31,062 nt of DNA from a virus (IMGVR_UViG_3300026270_000016:1-31062); one strand, 5' to 3'. Numbered from the stretch's first letter, positions 887-9,988 are shown. Notes: generated from the sequence alone by a model not told the origin. Program-made: numbers and translations.

Positions 887-945
887 ATTATAGGGCACAG
901 TCAGTGGTGTGGTGTGTATGCTGTGCCACTTTGTGAACTGGTCTA
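887..945 (-). promoter_or_regulatory. Palindrome-promoter cassette 1
   Basis: -10 TATAAT 887-892; stem GGCACAG/CTGTGCC 894-927; palindrome tgtgccactttgtgaactggtcta 922-945. Confidence 0.85.
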
Positions 946-1119
946 CTTGTTACGCCATACACGTTGGTATGCCATAGACTGTAGGGGATGGGGGTGTACT
1001 ATGGTTTGCACCATGTCCCAGAGTTTCGCTTCCCTCTCATGCATATACTTACCCGTCACATTGTACACGTTAAGTGCTGAGAGGTCGAAGGGTTCGCAGT
1101 GTGTGACTTGAAGTTTCAT
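943..1119 (-). CDS. Hypothetical protein (58 aa; start revised from 1329)
   Basis: ATG 1119 (MKLQVTHCEP...) forms an ATGA overlap with the stop of 1116..1247. Confidence 0.6.
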   Translation of the reverse strand: MKLQVTHCEPFDLSALNVYNVTGKYMHEREAKLWDMVQTIVHPHPLQSMAYQRVWRNK

Positions 1120-1247
1120 TTTGCTAGAGGTGAATTGAAATATTTGACGTTCACCACGTAGAGGGTGACCATTGCAACCACTATGCCAGCGAACCCTAGA
1201 AGTAGGATTGGCGACTGTGGGAAATCGTAGGTTGGAATTGCTGTCAT
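1116..1247 (-). CDS. Small single-pass membrane protein (43 aa); not in ORF track
   Basis: MTAIPTYDFPQSPILLLGFAGIVVAMVTLYVVNVKYFNSPLAK; hydrophobic stretch of about 20 aa; exactly fills the gap between neighbours. Confidence 0.75.
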   Translation of the reverse strand: MTAIPTYDFPQSPILLLGFAGIVVAMVTLYVVNVKYFNSPLAK

Positions 1248-1249
1248 GA

Positions 1250-1420
1250 TTAGTGCCTGTCTGAGATGTACCATGTTCCACCAGTAGGAACTTTGAGTTG
1301 TTGGAAATTACGCTTTGCCATTGCGTCAAGTGCTGCCCTTACTACTGGATCATTTGCTGCGGTGTCGTTCATGAGAACCGCTCCGTTGTAGTATGCTTTG
1401 AGTTGTTGTTTGTTGTTCAT
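1250..1420 (-). CDS. Hypothetical protein (56 aa)
   Basis: ATG 1420 lies just downstream of -10 box 1427-1432 (near-leaderless). Confidence 0.75.
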   Translation of the reverse strand: MNNKQQLKAYYNGAVLMNDTAANDPVVRAALDAMAKRNFQQLKVPTGGTWYISDRH

Positions 1421-1426
1421 GTCTTT

Positions 1427-1485
1427 ATTATAATGCATGATCCAAGGTTTGCTACTTGAGGTGGGACAGTTGTTGATCTGTCACA
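1427..1485 (-). promoter_or_regulatory. Palindrome-promoter cassette 2
   Basis: -10 TATAAT 1427-1432; palindrome tgggacagttgttgatctgtcaca 1462-1485 inside the 3' end of the upstream CDS. Confidence 0.8.
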
Positions 1486-1685
1486 GCTGAAACCTGTTCA
1501 TCAGCATAGACCCTCACCCACTTAATAGGGGTCGTGTTGTTGTTGATTCTGAAAATCATTTGATCTCCAAACCTCAGCTGATCCGCTGCTACTTTGTACG
1601 CGGTTTCGATGTCTGCACAGTATACGCACCCGTCACTGTCAAAGTTGAATGTGCTTGCTGGTTGAACTGCCCAAGTTGTTTGCAT
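1452..1685 (-). CDS. Hypothetical early protein
   Basis: 77-aa ORF with its own cassette and AC-rich leader. Confidence 0.8.
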   Translation of the reverse strand: MQTTWAVQPASTFNFDSDGCVYCADIETAYKVAADQLRFGDQMIFRINNNTTPIKWVRVYADEQVSAVTDQQLSHLK

Positions 1686-1711
1686 GTTTGTTTCTGTGTG
1701 TCGTTGAATTA

Positions 1712-1771
1712 ATTATAAACGTTATCACCACGGAAAGGATGGACCATAGTGACACTTTGTGAACTGGTCGT
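1712..1771 (-). promoter_or_regulatory. Palindrome-promoter cassette 3
   Basis: -10 TATAAT 1712-1717; palindrome agtgacactttgtgaactggtcgt 1748-1771. Confidence 0.85.
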
Positions 1772-1796
1772 ATCCCCACCACCTCGTGATGGGGCA

Positions 1797-1805
1797 TGTT
1801 ATAAT
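1797..1805 (+). promoter_or_regulatory. Divergent (antisense) extended -10 promoter
   Basis: TGTTATAAT on + strand; hexamer starts 28 nt past palindrome 3 and points into the 3' end of 1812..2126. Confidence 0.55.
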
Positions 1806-1811
1806 GTGACA

Positions 1812-2126
1812 TCAGGCAGCGAGCGTGTACCCTGATTCAAAATCGACTGTTCCATTGTTTGTATTCAAGAACCACTCAAAATTCTTTTGAAACACGCCGC
1901 AACCATATGCGAACTCGTAACATAATGCATTAAGTCTAGACTTAGTGGTGTTAGACTGCCAACCGCCGTCAAACAGTTGTAATGACTTAGGTCCCACAGT
2001 TGCAATGTGGTTGCCATGTAGATAAACAAAAGAGCAACCGCGAATGTTGATAACTTCAGTGTTATCCTTTCTGAAATCAGAGTTGTTTCTGATTGCTTCG
2101 TTCATTTGTCTTTCAATTAGTCTCAT
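1812..2126 (-). CDS. Conserved-type phage hypothetical protein (LHGNHIA / GGWQSNTTKSRLNAL motifs)
   Basis: 104-aa ORF with its own cassette. Confidence 0.85.
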   Translation of the reverse strand: MRLIERQMNEAIRNNSDFRKDNTEVINIRGCSFVYLHGNHIATVGPKSLQLFDGGWQSNTTKSRLNALCYEFAYGCGVFQKNFEWFLNTNNGTVDFESGYTLAA

Positions 2127-2152
2127 GTGTGTTCTGTGTGTTGTACTCTTTA

Positions 2153-2211
2153 ATTATAGGGCATCACGCCGCTGTTGCAAGCGGGTGTGTACCAGTTTCT
2201 AAACTGTCCTA
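2153..2211 (-). promoter_or_regulatory. Palindrome-promoter cassette 4
   Basis: -10 TATAAT 2153-2158; palindrome tgtaccagtttctaaactgtccta 2188-2211. Confidence 0.85.
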
Positions 2212-2444
2212 TCCTTGGTTGACTTGAAGTCGCATTTCATGTACTCTGCAATGTCAGCAACTACTTCATCATAGGCATCGTCCCAATAGTTGCGACATTC
2301 TTCTAAGAATTCATGCTCACCCAACTTATCAAAATAGTTGAATAGATCATCTGCAACGTACTCTTCAAGGTCTTTGGTTGACATGTTGTCAACCATTCTC
2401 TCTGTTAGAAATTCCTTGAGTTCGGTTAGTAATGCTCTATCCAT
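2199..2444 (-). CDS. Hypothetical acidic protein
   Basis: 81-aa ORF, TAATG-coupled to the upstream gene; stop in the centre of palindrome 4. Confidence 0.8.
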   Translation of the reverse strand: MDRALLTELKEFLTERMVDNMSTKDLEEYVADDLFNYFDKLGEHEFLEECRNYWDDAYDEVVADIAEYMKCDFKSTKDRTV

Positions 2445-2671
2445 TAGTAGTCATAAAAGAAAGGGTGTTCAGTCTCCACTGGTTCGGGTTCGTAACTCAT
2501 GCTTGAGTCAAGGTTTTGTTTGAGATTGTCATCATACAACCTCATTGATAATTCACCCTCTTCCCACATACCACAGTAACCGTGGCGATCTAATGCCTTG
2601 TCGATTATGTTCCAAATCTCATGCATTTCCCCATCATTCAAAAATGTGGGGAGATTCCAATAGTTCATCAT
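2444..2671 (-). CDS. Hypothetical acidic protein
   Basis: ATG 2671 in ATGA overlap with the stop of 2668..2847. Confidence 0.75.
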   Translation of the reverse strand: MMNYWNLPTFLNDGEMHEIWNIIDKALDRHGYCGMWEEGELSMRLYDDNLKQNLDSSMSYEPEPVETEHPFFYDY

Positions 2672-2847
2672 AAGCACATTCCCTCAAATAGTCTCTGTGC
2701 TTGTTTCTCTATTGCATCTAATGTGCCTAGAGTGTTGTTGGTTAACCAATTTAATTCGTCTTCGGTTAACTTGTTTGAGATTCTGAATGATTCCCATGCT
2801 TCGTCAAAGCATGTCTCAAGTAATGATTCGTGATGAAGTGTTGACAT
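2668..2847 (-). CDS. Hypothetical protein (59 aa); not in ORF track
   Basis: MSTLHHESLLETCFDEAWESFRISNKLTEDELNWLTNNTLGTLDAIEKQAQRLFEGMCL; directly after cassette 5 and an ACACAACACACAC leader. Confidence 0.8.
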   Translation of the reverse strand: MSTLHHESLLETCFDEAWESFRISNKLTEDELNWLTNNTLGTLDAIEKQAQRLFEGMCL

Positions 2848-2870
2848 GTGTGTGTTGTGTCTATAGTTCT

Positions 2871-2929
2871 ATTATACATGTACTAGTGACACTGTGTAGG
2901 GTATGAGTGCCACTAATAAAACTGTCACA
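2871..2929 (-). promoter_or_regulatory. Palindrome-promoter cassette 5
   Basis: -10 TATAAT 2871-2876; palindrome agtgccactaataaaactgtcaca 2906-2929. Confidence 0.85.
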
Positions 2930-2944
2930 AGGTGCTTTGACATT

Positions 2945-3130
2945 TTACCAATCTCCATTAGATTCTGAGAATACGTCTTCGTTCCAGTGTTCCTTTGGTT
3001 CTAGAACTCCAACATGTCTCATGATACCGTCATAGATTTCCATGCCACTGCGTGACATTCTACCGCATGTGTAATCCCAACCTAATTCTGTTAGATTGTC
3101 TAGAATGAATGAGAGAGAAACTTTTTTCAT
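2945..3130 (-). CDS. Hypothetical protein
   Basis: 61-aa ORF, ATGA-coupled. Confidence 0.75.
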   Translation of the reverse strand: MKKVSLSFILDNLTELGWDYTCGRMSRSGMEIYDGIMRHVGVLEPKEHWNEDVFSESNGDW

Positions 3131-3324
3131 TTGAGTTGAATGTTGTAATCAATGGATTTAATGCACCATCCCGTGCTAGTAGTAATTTCCTCTATTAGGT
3201 CATCATCGTCCGACGCTTCCCAACATCCCAAACAGTTCTTAACTATTTGATTTTGTTCCCACGTATCCAGATGACCGATAGAGTCTGAAAAATCAAACTC
3301 TATCGCGTTAACATTGTACATCAT
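3127..3324 (-). CDS. Hypothetical acidic protein
   Basis: 65-aa ORF, ATGA-coupled on both sides. Confidence 0.8.
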   Translation of the reverse strand: MMYNVNAIEFDFSDSIGHLDTWEQNQIVKNCLGCWEASDDDDLIEEITTSTGWCIKSIDYNIQLK

Positions 3325-3503
3325 GCGAATAGTGGACGCATGTAATCTTTAAACTCCTCACGTCTGTGATCTGCGAGGATTTGCATTTCTTTCTCTGTGA
3401 TTACTATGTCGTAACCCTCTGCTTTCATTTCGTCGTAACATGCTTGAGAGATGCCCTTGTCTGTTAGGTCATACTTGTGAAGTTCAACGTATTTAAAAAA
3501 CAT
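3321..3503 (-). CDS. Hypothetical protein (60 aa; start revised)
   Basis: ATG 3503 (MFFKYVELH...) follows an AC-rich leader and -10 box 3529-3534. Confidence 0.8.
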   Translation of the reverse strand: MFFKYVELHKYDLTDKGISQACYDEMKAEGYDIVITEKEMQILADHRREEFKDYMRPLFA

Positions 3504-3528
3504 GTGTGTCGTGTGTGTTGTGTACATT

Positions 3529-3591
3529 ATTATAATAAGGGATTGCAATGACTACTGCAACCCCTTATGTGACAGTTTGTCTACTGTCCTA
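3529..3591 (-). promoter_or_regulatory. Palindrome-promoter cassette 6
   Basis: -10 TATAAT 3529-3534; 13-bp stem (one G-U) 3535-3568; palindrome tgtgacagtttgtctactgtccta 3568-3591. Confidence 0.8.
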
Positions 3592-4036
3592 GGTATCCTG
3601 CAACCATACAACCTGGTTCGTCATAGAACCACGTAACGTCAACATCTGGGTATTTTTCCCTTAGTTCATAGTATATTCCCTCAGGTGGTGCCCAGGCAGT
3701 TTCAAAGCAAATATCAAAACTAAATTCATCATCACCATCTGAGATGCCCCCATCTATATCCCACTTCGTCCCCCAGTTGTTCACGTTCCAGTCATACCAT
3801 CTGTCATCATTCTTTCCATCTGGGAAATCATAGGTAGTATAGACTATATCACCATTTGAGTTCTTACATTCTCTCTTAATAGGTAATGCACCATCCTCAC
3901 GAGGTGTATTCTTCCAATCTGGTGCTGGTTTGATCTTTTGAAATACATTAGGACTCTCAAAGATCTCTTTTAATTTTTTGATCTGCTCTGTGTTGTCTGA
4001 GTAGAATGAAACTCTGTTCTCGCACCAGTTTGGCAT
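3581..4036 (-). CDS. YubB/DUF1281-like ferredoxin-fold protein
   Basis: MPNWCEN N-terminus plus WYDWNVNNWGTKWD, FETAWAPP and YDEPG motifs typical of this family. Confidence 0.75.
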   Translation of the reverse strand: MPNWCENRVSFYSDNTEQIKKLKEIFESPNVFQKIKPAPDWKNTPREDGALPIKRECKNSNGDIVYTTYDFPDGKNDDRWYDWNVNNWGTKWDIDGGISDGDDEFSFDICFETAWAPPEGIYYELREKYPDVDVTWFYDEPGCMVAGYLGQ

Positions 4037-4061
4037 AATAATTCAATTTGTAATGTGTGTG

Positions 4062-4170
4062 ATGTGAGAACGAACTGGTAATTCCAGGAGTTGCAAGTAC
4101 TGCTCACAAGGATCTTTAGACCCAGTTCTACATGTCCATGTTAATGATGGAATCGAACCATCCCTCACAT
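4062..4170 (-). ncRNA. Candidate structured leader RNA with a tRNA-like T-arm
   Basis: ATGTGAG/CTCACAT closing stem, GATGG-TTCGATT-CCATC hairpin, GAACTGG/CCAGTTC stem; no ORF; starts at the predicted TSS of cassette 7. Confidence 0.55.
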
Positions 4171-4174
4171 TTAT

Positions 4175-4234
4175 ATAATACTAAAAAAGGGCAACTCATT
4201 CAAGCTGCCCTGTGCCACTAATTAAACTGTCTAC
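4175..4234 (-). promoter_or_regulatory. Palindrome-promoter cassette 7 with embedded terminator-like hairpin
   Basis: -10 TATTAT 4175-4180, -35 TTGAAT 4198-4203; AGGGCAGC/GTTGCCCT hairpin plus T-run; palindrome tgtgccactaattaaactgtctac 4211-4234. Confidence 0.8.
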
Positions 4235-4536
4235 ACCATTGCCATCTGTGTGACAACTTGTGAGATCATAACAGCATCCTGTCTAAATGCTTTTTTGTAT
4301 GCCGCTCCTATCATTACGAACAGCGGGTGAAACGTTTCAATCTCACTGTCTGGAATTTCAACGTAGAGGATCTTTGTCATCTCTTGCTGTCCTTTCCAGA
4401 ATCCGATCCCGTCGAGGATCGTACCGTATTCAAGCAATGGCATTATGTTGGTCCTTACGAAGTCAGCGAACATTTCATCATCGACGGTACCCGCGTCTGG
4501 AATGTTTCTGCCCATTGTCAATTCAAGTCGGATCAT
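4231..4536 (-). CDS. DUF3574-like protein, possibly SAM-lyase-related
   Basis: GRNIP...F...GxGxWKG..E.TK...YKKAFRQDAV pattern. Confidence 0.6.
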   Translation of the reverse strand: MIRLELTMGRNIPDAGTVDDEMFADFVRTNIMPLLEYGTILDGIGFWKGQQEMTKILYVEIPDSEIETFHPLFVMIGAAYKKAFRQDAVMISQVVTQMAMV

Positions 4537-4558
4537 GTGTGTTTGTGTGATTAATTAT

Positions 4559-4618
4559 ATTATGGCACAAAAAAGGCACCGCGCAACGGGTGCCTGTGCC
4601 ACTTTGTCAACTGGTTAC
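4559..4618 (-). promoter_or_regulatory. Palindrome-promoter cassette 8 with embedded terminator-like hairpin
   Basis: -10 CATAAT 4559-4564; AGGCACC/GGTGCCT hairpin plus T-run; palindrome tgtgccactttgtcaactggttac 4595-4618. Confidence 0.85.
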
Positions 4619-4815
4619 ATGTAACCTTGATCCACGGCGTCCATCACATCACCATACTCACCGATGATGTTCCCGAATGTGTCACGTATGCACACATACT
4701 TAGTCTCATCCTCTGACATAGCATAACATAGGTCAAAGGCACGATCCTCATCGGCAGTGGTTTCAATTTCGCCAGTCTCTGGGCAGTGGATTTCAAAAGT
4801 CATAATCTCATTCAT
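4615..4815 (-). CDS. Hypothetical acidic protein (start 4815 or 4803)
   Basis: ATGs lie downstream of -10 box 4828-4833. Confidence 0.75.
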   Translation of the reverse strand: MNEIMTFEIHCPETGEIETTADEDRAFDLCYAMSEDETKYVCIRDTFGNIIGEYGDVMDAVDQGYM

Positions 4816-4827
4816 GTGTATGCTACT

Positions 4828-4886
4828 ATTATAGAGCATAAAAGGTTGAGGGCGACACATGTTATGCCACTACCTCAACTGTCCCA
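4828..4886 (-). promoter_or_regulatory. Palindrome-promoter cassette 9
   Basis: -10 TATAAT 4828-4833; palindrome tatgccactacctcaactgtccca 4863-4886. Confidence 0.75.
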
Positions 4887-5101
4887 TAGATATCGTTCAT
4901 GATATCTCTCACCCTCTCACGGTCTAGACTGTCACCATCTCCCCATGACCAGTGAACATATTCCAGGTCACCCTTAGCAATGAGATCAAAATACCTTAGT
5001 GTTGCATATGCTACCTGCTCAGCTGTTCTGTTCTGATCATATAAACCACCAGGTCCATAGAATGAGAGACAGTATTCAATGAATTCATCAAAATTGTGCA
5101 T
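4862..5101 (-). CDS. Conserved-type phage hypothetical protein (SFYGPGGLY / GDSLDRERVRD motifs)
   Basis: 79-aa ORF with its own cassette. Confidence 0.8.
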   Translation of the reverse strand: MHNFDEFIEYCLSFYGPGGLYDQNRTAEQVAYATLRYFDLIAKGDLEYVHWSWGDGDSLDRERVRDIMNDIYGTVEVVA

Positions 5102-5122
5102 AGTCTGTGTGTTACTGTCTTA

Positions 5123-5180
5123 AGTATACCACACGGCGTCTCTCATGCATTCTCAGTGTGACAGAAATCTAACTGTCCTC
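5123..5180 (-). promoter_or_regulatory. Palindrome-promoter cassette 10
   Basis: -10 TATACT 5123-5128; palindrome tgtgacagaaatctaactgtcctc 5157-5180. Confidence 0.8.
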
Positions 5181-5324
5181 ATATGGGTTGTCATCACCCT
5201 TGAAATGCTTTACTCTTTTCCTACTGGACCTTCTAATGTTTTTAATATGATATCCAAAATCTTCAAAATCGTCGTCTATTTCTTTGTATCGCTCTCTATT
5301 GTTTGCCGAAGGACGTTTGCCCAT
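5169..5324 (-). CDS. Small highly charged protein (51 aa); not in ORF track
   Basis: MGKRPSANNRERYKEIDDDFEDFGYHIKNIRRSSRKRVKHFKGDDNPYEDS; stop inside palindrome 10. Confidence 0.65.
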   Translation of the reverse strand: MGKRPSANNRERYKEIDDDFEDFGYHIKNIRRSSRKRVKHFKGDDNPYEDS

Positions 5325-5362
5325 AGTACAATTGCAATGTTTACTGTAGAATGAATTAATAT

Positions 5363-5611
5363 TTAGTTTTGAGGAACTGCAGTGATATTACCTTCTTTAA
5401 TTTGATTGTGAATATACCTTCCAACACTACCTCCAGTCTTCATTTCGACTGAAATTAGTTCTTTACATAGACTATTCTCAAAATGTTCTAAATCTTTGCA
5501 ATTAAATGTATATTCTTTCTCTAAATTACTCGTATACACAACTTTTACGTCATTTTCAGTAATATTAATGCTTTTAATAGCACTAGAGATTAAATTGTCG
5601 TACATTTTCAT
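5363..5611 (-). CDS. KTSC-like small nucleic-acid-binding protein
   Basis: SSAIKSI...VKVVY...EYTF...SVGRYIHNQIK resembles the KTSC pattern. Confidence 0.55.
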   Translation of the reverse strand: MKMYDNLISSAIKSINITENDVKVVYTSNLEKEYTFNCKDLEHFENSLCKELISVEMKTGGSVGRYIHNQIKEGNITAVPQN

Positions 5612-5650
5612 CTTTTTGACGTTTTTAGGGCGATTTAAAAAGGAATTTAA

Positions 5651-5800
5651 TTAAAAAACTCAGAAATACAAAGAAATTAAATCTTAAATATTCTGAAAAA
5701 CTCAAAAATCTTAAATATTAAACTTTCTGAGTTTTTTAAAGTCTTAAAACTTTCGTTTTTTTGACTTTTTAAGGAATTCAGCAGTTCTCTGTTTCCTTAA
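5651..5800. repeat. AT-rich non-coding region with inverted and direct repeats
   Basis: 16-bp perfect IR 5651-5666/5724-5739; AAATCTTAAATATT at 5679 and 5706; 8-bp IR 5769-5776/5793-5800. Confidence 0.8.
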
Positions 5801-5804
5801 TTAC

Positions 5805-5864
5805 AGTATAACCCAAACTCCAAGGAATTTTGAGGGTTTGTGTGACACTTTGAGTACTGGCACA
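5805..5864 (-). promoter_or_regulatory. Palindrome-promoter cassette 11
   Basis: -10 TATACT 5805-5810; palindrome tgtgacactttgagtactggcaca 5841-5864. Confidence 0.85.
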
Positions 5865-6024
5865 CTCCGAGTTGACATTCGATGGGTGGCGTGCTAAGCC
5901 AACAACGTGACCGTACATTTACATACTTGTCACAGTATTAACACAACACCTATACACATTTATCTAATGATTTGTTAACATTCTCACAAGTACCTCAAAG
6001 ACACTTGGAAAACCCAGTCCACCA

Positions 6025-6612
6025 CTAGTGCGGAGTTGTGTTCAAAACACGTGGTACATTCATACTATCACTGTTCCATGATATACTTATTCGATCATGC
6101 ATTTCATTGTTACATTCAACATGATGTGGTATGTATGAAGGGAACATCAGTATGTCTCCTTGGTGTGGTATTATGCTATAGTATGGGTGTATGTTCAACT
6201 CTTTTCTGACTGTATCACTCAATGAAACAGTTGCATTATGTTGTTCATACAGATGTGGATTGGTTAACACTAATGGTACATTACTATCAGTCAAGTAGTA
6301 CACAAATGTATAATCACTGTTAGGATGTATGTGTGATACATTATATCCTCCTGTTGGGTTGATATTAATCCATGCATCACCATGTACTAACTTAGTTGTG
6401 ACAGTATTATCATCAATGTATTCTAATACTGGTTCTAACTGTGGTATACTATGTGTCTTTGATTGCCATCCTAATCGTATACTCCTTGTCTTATCAATGA
6501 ACTTATGCTTATTGTATTCTTGTAGACAATGGTCAATGAGATTAGGGGGTGGATAGTAATGTAGTTGTTGTATGTAAGAAGAGAACAGTGGTTTAACCGA
6601 AGGTGTTAGCAT
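6025..6612 (-). CDS. Putative 2OG-Fe(II) oxygenase
   Basis: WININ..GGYN..HIHP, FPSYIPHHV and RISISWN motifs. Confidence 0.85.
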   Translation of the reverse strand: MLTPSVKPLFSSYIQQLHYYPPPNLIDHCLQEYNKHKFIDKTRSIRLGWQSKTHSIPQLEPVLEYIDDNTVTTKLVHGDAWININPTGGYNVSHIHPNSDYTFVYYLTDSNVPLVLTNPHLYEQHNATVSLSDTVRKELNIHPYYSIIPHQGDILMFPSYIPHHVECNNEMHDRISISWNSDSMNVPRVLNTTPH

Positions 6613-9384: not shown

Positions 9385-9443
9385 AGTATAACGCGGAGTG
9401 TGGCACAAAACCACACTCAGTGTACACTTTGATAACTGTCACA
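9385..9443 (-). promoter_or_regulatory. Palindrome-promoter cassette 12
   Basis: -10 TATACT 9385-9390; perfect 8-bp stem GAGTGTGG/CCACACTC 9396-9418; palindrome gtgtacactttgataactgtcaca 9420-9443. Confidence 0.85.
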
Positions 9444-9445
9444 CA

Positions 9446-9646
9446 CTAGAATGGGCAATCATCTGGTACAGTGTATGTTGATTGTTCTCCGCACATCCAC
9501 TTAGTACGTTGTTCATCTTGCCACATCATATCCGCAACACGTTTAGACATTGCATCTACATGTTTACGTTCTAGCATTTGCTGTCCAGACAGATTATATT
9601 CATTCATATACTCTGTCCAGACGATATCTCTGTATAGATTGTTCAT
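9446..9646 (-). CDS. Hypothetical protein
   Basis: 66-aa ORF, ATGA-coupled. Confidence 0.75.
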   Translation of the reverse strand: MNNLYRDIVWTEYMNEYNLSGQQMLERKHVDAMSKRVADMMWQDEQRTKWMCGEQSTYTVPDDCPF

Positions 9647-9809: not shown

Positions 9810-9867
9810 AATATACATCATTTCGATGTGAATGGGGGTGATGGTAGACAGTTTGATAACTGGTTGT
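9810..9867 (-). promoter_or_regulatory. Palindrome-promoter cassette 13
   Basis: -10 TATATT 9810-9815; palindrome gtagacagtttgataactggttgt 9844-9867. Confidence 0.65.
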
Positions 9868-9988
9868 AGAGTATACCATCATTTACTGATTTATGGTAGA
9901 AAGATTTGGAATCTGCTTCCATCATCATATCCATGATAAATCGAATCTGAGAGGGAGTCAATGGTACTTGGGTAGTTTGTTCAATCAT
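9818..9988 (-). CDS. Hypothetical protein (56 aa); not in ORF track
   Basis: MIEQTTQVPLTPSQIRFIMDMMMEADSK...; ATGA overlap with the MTase stop. Confidence 0.65.
   Translation of the reverse strand: MIEQTTQVPLTPSQIRFIMDMMMEADSKSFYHKSVNDGILYNQLSNCLPSPPFTSK

Follow-up and report, generated by a model that had tools for sequence, protein, structure and literature searches.

We analyzed a 31,062-nucleotide stretch of viral DNA (IMGVR_UViG_3300026270_000016:1-31062; "the window" below means this whole stretch) and, in it, a repeated 22-bp palindrome that precedes small early genes and at some copies is flanked by a mirror-image -10 motif. The window is the early-gene array of a T4-like marine cyanophage, with its genes on the - strand. 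Its first 8 kb matched 386 phage records by BLAST, all of them Synechococcus, Prochlorococcus or Cyanophage phages, and the best match was a Kyanoviridae genome. Small - strand open reading frames (ORFs) matched PHROG families in 22 of 23 tested cases (21 of these of unknown function) vs 0 of 11 + strand ORFs, which agrees with the original prediction that no credible + strand gene follows the mirror motifs. An Rfam search of the window returned 0 matches.

The palindrome, GTGHCAST-N6-ASTGKCAC, has 13 copies in the window. Its center precedes each predicted sense start by ~53.5 nt, and a sense (- strand) TAnnnT stands 29-31 nt past the dyad in 12 of the 13. The 6-bp spacer is biased, with T at the first and A at the last position (69% each). 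Read on the sense strand, the spacer of several copies (e.g., 4604-4609) resembles TTGACA; a normal -35 would lie about two helical turns further downstream.

Mirror-image motifs in the window

The original prediction held that these palindromes also carry + strand promoters aimed antisense into the upstream gene. The six motifs that it quoted are all present. It placed them at a symmetric distance of 28-30 nt; counted from the end of the 22-bp palindrome to the start of the hexamer on the opposite (mirror) strand, which is the mirror offset used throughout, the hexamers lie at 29-31 nt.

At copy 1 (923-944), whose edge overlaps the stop codon of a 58-aa gene (943-1119) and whose sense -10 is TATAAT (892-887, - strand), the mirror -10 TAGACT (975-980, + strand, offset 30) falls within that gene and predicts a start at 987. 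Copy 3 (1749-1770) has an intergenic extended -10, TGtTATAAT (1797-1807, + strand), with its hexamer at 1800-1805 (offset 29) and TAATGT at 1802 (offset 31); the predicted start, 1812, is at the stop of a Kyano_Gp96-family gene. The + strand arm of copy 4 (2189-2210), TTGACT-17-TACTCT (2219-2247; TACTCT at 2242, offset 31), lies within a DUF7326 gene (2199-2444), and that of copy 5 (2907-2928), TTGACA-16-TAGATT (2937-2964; TAGATT at 2959, offset 30), has its -10 within a phrog_17030 gene (2945-3130). Copy 10 (5158-5179; sense -10 TATACT at 5128-5123) contains the stop of the phrog_4484 gene (5169-5324, - strand) and carries TTGTCA-17-TACTCT (5188-5216, + strand; TACTCT at 5211, offset 31). Copy 11 (5842-5863; sense -10 TATACT at 5810-5805) carries TTGAC-A-17-TAAGCC-AAC (5872-5904, + strand; TAAGCC at 5895, offset 31). 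This highly conserved arm departs from the claim that all arms face the upstream gene: its first ~120 nt are non-coding, and T-7 is absent. TTG-type -35 hexamers stand at mirror offset 8 at copies 4, 5, 10 and 11.

Two weaker cases had been named. The one at 9474 stands (copy 12, 9422-9443; TATGTT at 9474-9479, + strand, offset 30, within gene 9446-9646), and the one at 9897 is not TAnnnT; copy 13 (9845-9866) has no mirror TAnnnT. Convincing arms are also missing, as had been stated, from copies 2 (1463-1484), 6 (3569-3590), 7 (4212-4233), 8 (4596-4617) and 9 (4864-4885). At copy 6, a hairpin of -19.7 kcal/mol separates the palindrome from the sense -10, and copies 7 and 8 adjoin terminator-like - strand hairpins with U tracts (4211-4188 and 4595-4574, the combined features spanning 4188-4233 and 4574-4617). 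Another terminator-like hairpin with a U tract (482-503, - strand) closes the early array.

TAnnnT stands at mirror offset 30/31 in 6 of 13 window copies; its density on the + strand is 0.05, which gives a binomial p of 2e-5. A generic sigma-70 scan was uninformative (35 sites vs 29.5 in shuffled sequence) and recovered, of the six arms, the copy-5 arm alone.

Mirror motifs in homologous cassettes

We ran five scans of viral contigs with fixed half-site variants, each covering 5-8 of the 64 parts of the collection. These gave 665 loci (the named one included) in addition to the window. We used the 215 loci with at least three spaced copies, comprising 1219 sites, 802 of them unique; an orientation could be assigned to 553 of these, removal of redundancy left 431, and 419 of them come from outside the window. 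The sense -10 formed a sharp peak at offset 29-31 beyond the palindrome (802 unique sites). Mirror TAnnnT at offset 30/31 was present at 124 of the 419 sites, compared with a mean of 19.9 (maximum 35) at offsets 40-120. The offset-specific enrichment over background that had been proposed as a check is therefore present in homologous cassettes. TTGAC-like hexamers were likewise enriched at mirror offset 7/8 (34/419 vs 3.6), and T followed TA at -7 in 68 of 91 cases at mirror offsets vs 37% elsewhere, so that the signal is a three-base -10 signature. Co-occurrence of -35 and -10 on the mirror arm was weak (p 0.18 overall, 0.02 in one subset). In 11 named isolates whose regions were oriented by annotation (one also in the main set), the mirror motif occurred at 15 of 62 non-redundant sites vs 2.65 expected, including 3 of 9 in P-TIM40, where mirror hexamers stand at record positions 52468, 53289 and ~55026. 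Lone palindromes had both arms at 2 of 74 loci.

We asked how much of this could be due to chance or codon bias, to stop codons, to genuine divergent genes or to remnants of inverted cassettes. In clean tandem cassettes (sense -10, downstream gene, no divergent ORF) the motif was kept at 73 of 239 sites vs 12.1. Within upstream coding sequence it occurred at 58 of 206 sites vs 27.3 +/- 3.7 after synonymous recoding, a count reached in 0 of 500 simulations, and it fell in all three frames of the upstream gene. Sampling one site per upstream gene family gave 68 of 259 vs 32.5 under recoding (reached in 0 of 100,000 draws), and where the peptide allows the motif it was present in 68 of 89 cases. 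No upstream stop ends at a position able to create the mirror TA, and stop codons are therefore not the explanation. Nor is the mirror arm a relic of an inverted cassette, because the features of the sense arm are missing: hairpins occurred at 18% of mirror vs 49% of sense arms, the A+C leader fraction was 0.49 vs 0.71, and an ATG followed in 17% vs 67%. An artefact gains from the window taken alone (p 0.08 under recoding, see below), from weak conservation outside phrog_4484 and from relatedness, which inflates family counts. We nevertheless regard it as largely refuted and highly improbable, given that the enrichment persists after removal of divergent ORFs, one-per-family sampling and recoding.

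The clearest case is the gene upstream of copy 10, which encodes a 51-aa charged peptide without a Pfam family. Its family, phrog_4484, carries the mirror -10 in 72 of 76 members vs 34.1 expected; orthologues of copy 10 with the arm occur, for example, in ACG-2014i, S-RSM4 and Syn1. The arm is kept in 9 of 12 stop-to-palindrome registers, in 15 of 18 peptide contexts and across 16 different downstream gene families. Motif-making codons are used where the peptide offers them (GTA for the Val of Val-Ala in 12 of 13 cases; GTT or GTA for that of Lys-Val-Thr in 9 of 9). Because the arm is re-created over different codons at a fixed distance, these data point to selection on it, though the members are related; elsewhere the arm is labile. 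It is seldom present in the families at copies 2 (2/15, window counted), 6 (0/3), 7 (0/3) and 8 (0/6). Arm state is independent of the downstream gene family (r 0.02-0.03), and the arm is commoner after multi-gene units (~61/175 vs 19/91, median p 0.018).

The phrog_4484 peptide has an acidic middle and a basic C-terminal half, and in aligned relatives its gene lies downstream of the origin-like module described below. It is a candidate nucleic-acid- or polymerase-binding early factor. The ESM Atlas returned "hypothetical protein" clusters for it and nothing more.

Gene neighbors of the cassettes are shuffled among relatives. Upstream ORFs end at -7 to +14 of the palindrome start in 193 of 302 cases and at +1 to +14 in 137 of 302, so that stop codons often lie inside the palindrome. 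With its 8-6-8 dyad and the shuffled neighbors, the site may double as a crossover point for cassette exchange. Gene-level variation also occurs inside a cassette: a close relative in two public runs skips 128 nt of window 1115-1244, most of gene 1116-1274.

Possible roles of the mirror arm

The directly observed part of the picture is the geometry, the enrichment of three key -10 bases at mirror distance and their re-creation over different codons. Measured from either predicted start, the dyad center is at -52.5 to -54.5, and 107-109 nt separate the two starts. This centers the palindrome between a strong sense promoter motif on one side and, on the other side of about three copies in ten, a weak mirror-image -10 that is under selection. 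That the -10 boxes stand in mirror symmetry around the palindrome is an argument for a symmetric factor that sits near -53.5 and positions the polymerase. Our proposed reading, to which we give about an even chance, is that a single site fires a strong promoter for mRNA together with a weak antisense promoter that trims the upstream gene. A dimeric factor on the palindrome would recruit host RNA polymerase in both directions, and the weak mirror arm would co-fire a low-level antisense transcript into the upstream gene. This would act as an incoherent feed-forward trim of the last gene of the preceding unit, through polymerase collision or duplex decay, lowering its output without switching it on or off. 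Collision-type interference is reported as frequent in cyanobacteria in the accessible text of PMC10349824. For the original claim that one symmetric site fires two divergent promoters, the symmetric site with a selected -10 motif at mirror distance stands, and the firing itself is predicted from sequence. Two sets of metatranscriptome contigs gave 0 records, a result that counts neither for nor against such transcription.

The two arms differ in quality. Mirror hexamers matched TATAAT at 4.07 of 6 positions vs 5.30 for sense hexamers, and their enriched bases are T-12, A-11, T-7 and T-17/-18, no others. The sense start is sharp: 12 nt past the first base of the hexamer stands a purine (97%), T comes next (80%), and the leader that follows is rich in A and C (366 homologous sites). 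Folding below -6 kcal/mol is seen in 49% of the 366 spacers of these sense arms. An intact half-site on the mirror-proximal side is no predictor of a mirror arm (p 0.16).

Several results weigh against the trimming model. The codon-shuffle test of the window, which the original prediction had called for, gave 5 of 11 copies with coding sequence vs 2.8 expected (p 0.08, synonymous recoding), and the window by itself is therefore suggestive only. Against TATAAT, mirror hexamers score no better than random TAnnnT (4.07 vs 3.92 matches, p 0.09). They show no purine preference at +1 (25/68, background 0.45), and no mirror-strand terminator is evident within 400 nt (1/68 vs 3/191). Syn9 has the motif at offset 30/31 in 0 of 7 sites. 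Concordance within upstream families (r 0.53 overall) is driven by phrog_4484 and falls to r 0.09 (p 0.056) without that family, and the effect of multi-gene units drops to z 1.6 with covariates. Finally, the tests run do not distinguish trimming of the upstream mRNA from its protection.

Protection would mean that the duplex masks single-stranded RNase E sites of the upstream early mRNA during host RNA degradation. Antisense RNAs shield mRNAs from RNase E in phage-infected Prochlorococcus, host RNAs in that case (PMC3113571, accessible text). The predicted antisense start lies a median of 157 nt from the upstream start codon, so that the RNA can span a whole small gene. We consider this role unlikely, since a weak promoter would make too little RNA for a strongly made mRNA and ~70% of cassettes have no arm.

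The mirror -10 might instead be a docking or melting site for polymerase that aids the palindrome complex or the sense promoter, by cooperative binding or supercoil coupling, with any RNA a by-product. The restriction of the enrichment to the four positions named above fits this idea, as do the missing start-site preference and terminator. An aid to the sense promoter should follow the downstream gene, yet arm state is independent of that gene, and at phrog_4484 the arm follows the upstream gene over 16 downstream partners. Such a role therefore seems distinctly improbable.

The trimming model also differs from the timer, insulator or mutual-exclusion circuit of the original prediction, in which firing one cassette shuts off the previous one. 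The convergent geometry is real, and copies 6-8, which have three of the four strongest hairpins, have no mirror arms. The homologs show a trend of the same sign, as if mirror arms replaced terminator hairpins, but this anticorrelation is not significant (p 0.10-0.28; z 1.7). A timer or mutual exclusion is not supported: all cassettes have one palindrome as their common switch and would turn on together, no ordering is apparent in the sequence, the antisense arm is the weaker of the two, and ~70% of copies have no mirror arm. We rate a circuit of this kind as very improbable.

An origin-like module at copy 11 and the predicted palindrome-binding factor

Copy 11 had been grouped with the other arms; it belongs instead to a separate, origin-like module (5600-6025), to which relatives add short tandem repeats and DnaA-like boxes. 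An A+T-rich non-coding tract (5600-5790; GC 0.18-0.25 per 100 nt) lies directly downstream of the copy-11 sense promoter and resembles an unwinding element. An alignment of ten phages shows almost no variation in the arm, TTGAC-18-TAAG[C/A]CAAC. A scan with this arm alone found 119 stretches, with one match per locus in the 80 loci listed. Among distinct arm-found modules, the palindrome lay 7-8 nt upstream in 85 of 96, a 100-nt stretch of GC <=0.22 occurred on the sense side in 62 of 84, and TTWTCCACA, which we take to be a DnaA-like box, lay downstream within 200 nt in 37 of 82. Ordinary cassettes reached GC <=0.20 in 0 of 259 cases. No consensus RNA structure was found in the region after the copy-11 arm.

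A T4-type origin consists of a promoter and a downstream unwinding element. Copy 11 has this order, a promoter followed by an A+T-rich non-coding tract. It puts the palindrome to a distinct use, in what is likely a replication-origin module. At copies 10 and 11, and only there, the arms may serve the origin itself, which we judge possible at somewhat less than even chances. The copy-11 sense promoter would transcribe into the A+T tract, its mirror arm would look onto non-coding DNA in which DnaA-like boxes lie, and the arm of copy 10 would fire toward the same tract. The recurrence of palindrome, A+T tract and TTWTCCACA around arm-found modules speaks for this, together with the low GC that no ordinary cassette reaches and the missing RNA structure. 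Moreover, no arms are better conserved than those of copies 10 and 11, which lie on either side of the tract. On the other side, TTWTCCACA is absent from the window itself. The copy-11 hexamer (TAAGCC/TAAGAC) has no T-7, and it may therefore be a protein site instead of a working -10. An origin role also leaves the other arms unexplained, and these occur on both sides of the module.

We searched 185,579 prokaryote genomes for the palindrome with TATAAT and found 19 stretches; the clustered ones lay on four contigs that appear to be mis-binned phage. In a metagenome-assembled genome (MAG) labeled Synechococcus, every match was on one 194-kb contig, probably phage. Clustered palindrome promoters also occur in assemblies labeled Nonlabens xiamenensis and Flavobacteriales TMED113, as in those labeled Synechococcus, and are probably mis-binned cyanophage DNA. 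A loose pattern exceeded its reversed-pattern control, a crude one, in 6 of 81 genomes of the MAG's family, which falls short of enrichment. Because the palindrome is not enriched in the searched host genomes, the binding factor is possibly phage-specific. A host regulon is not evident, and possible candidates are a factor of the phage or its virion and a host factor that has no sites of this kind.

Taken to its full extent, a single palindrome factor would fire all early cassettes, co-fire dose-setting antisense RNA into the last codons of chosen upstream genes and, at one copy, fire a T-7-less promoter by the A+T tract, coupling early transcription to origin firing. We regard this combined scheme as speculative and rather unlikely.

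Comparison with known systems

We presume that the palindrome is probably the T4-like cyanophage early-gene element of Doron et al. 2016 (ISME J 10:1437). In our data, the palindrome with a sense -10 ~30 nt downstream occurs in small-gene regions at 7 sites in Syn9 and 9 in P-TIM40, and in Kyanoviridae, these two included, it stands upstream of small genes of unknown function. The element of that study is said to be a palindromic motif upstream of the Pribnow box at early genes. We put at about even odds that the study also reports short antisense RNAs made from such elements. The sense promoters probably belong to a known class, and if such RNAs were mapped there, the gain here is the evidence for selection and the split into two classes. 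In the texts available to a literature search, mostly other than subscription papers and not including Doron 2016, no mirror promoter on this palindrome was described. Selection on a mirror -10 in coding sequence, gene-specific conservation and an origin-like copy were not found in those texts either.

Dimeric activators of the CRP/FNR type can co-activate divergent promoters from one central site. Here, too, a dyad (22 bp, with a spacer of 6 bp) stands between promoters that are back to back. The present arrangement differs in that the half-site is not TGTGA, the center is at about -53.5 and not, as is usual, at -41.5 or -61.5, and one arm lacks a gene.

T4-like cyanophages lack alt, modA and modB, according to the accessible text of PMC2984593, and our results bear on how they activate their first genes without T4's modifying enzymes. 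The predictions give exact start sites, and single synonymous changes would abolish the antisense arm. They also single out a conserved 51-aa early peptide with antisense control seemingly under selection, plus a candidate replication origin.

The PeSL cassettes of RB49 and phi1 (Arbiol et al. 2010, PMC2839356, accessible text) are likewise repeated promoter units between small unknown genes. A PeSL unit begins at the upstream stop codon (compare the 193 of 302 upstream ORFs here), its gene neighbors are shuffled, and a stem-loop often lies between -35 and -10, which the 49% of sense spacers that fold here and the terminator-like hairpins at copies 7 and 8 may parallel. A PeSL carries a consensus -35 box, a Shine-Dalgarno sequence and, upstream, an AT-rich region, and mini-circles arise when units recombine (PMC2839356). 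In contrast, the cassettes here have a TTGAC-like -35 in 30 of 419 sense arms and an A/C-rich leader, and the accessible part of PMC2839356 describes neither a palindromic site nor a mirror promoter for PeSLs.

CfrI of cyanophage S-PM2 is, like the RNA predicted here, a cis-antisense RNA at a gene 3' end in a T4-like cyanophage, but it is a single ~225-nt RNA at psbA that is not tied to the early palindrome in the accessible texts (PMC2984593, PMC12197685). Bidirectional sigma-70 promoters (PMC10268837, accessible text, citing Warman et al. 2021) are similar in that one locus makes an mRNA and often an antisense non-coding RNA and that T-7, A-11 and T-18 matter. Their starts lie 7-25 bp apart, with -10 elements that overlap reciprocally and symmetry in the -10 itself, whereas here the symmetry is that of an upstream palindrome. 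Predicted starts 107-109 nt apart exclude the overlapping bidirectional type here.

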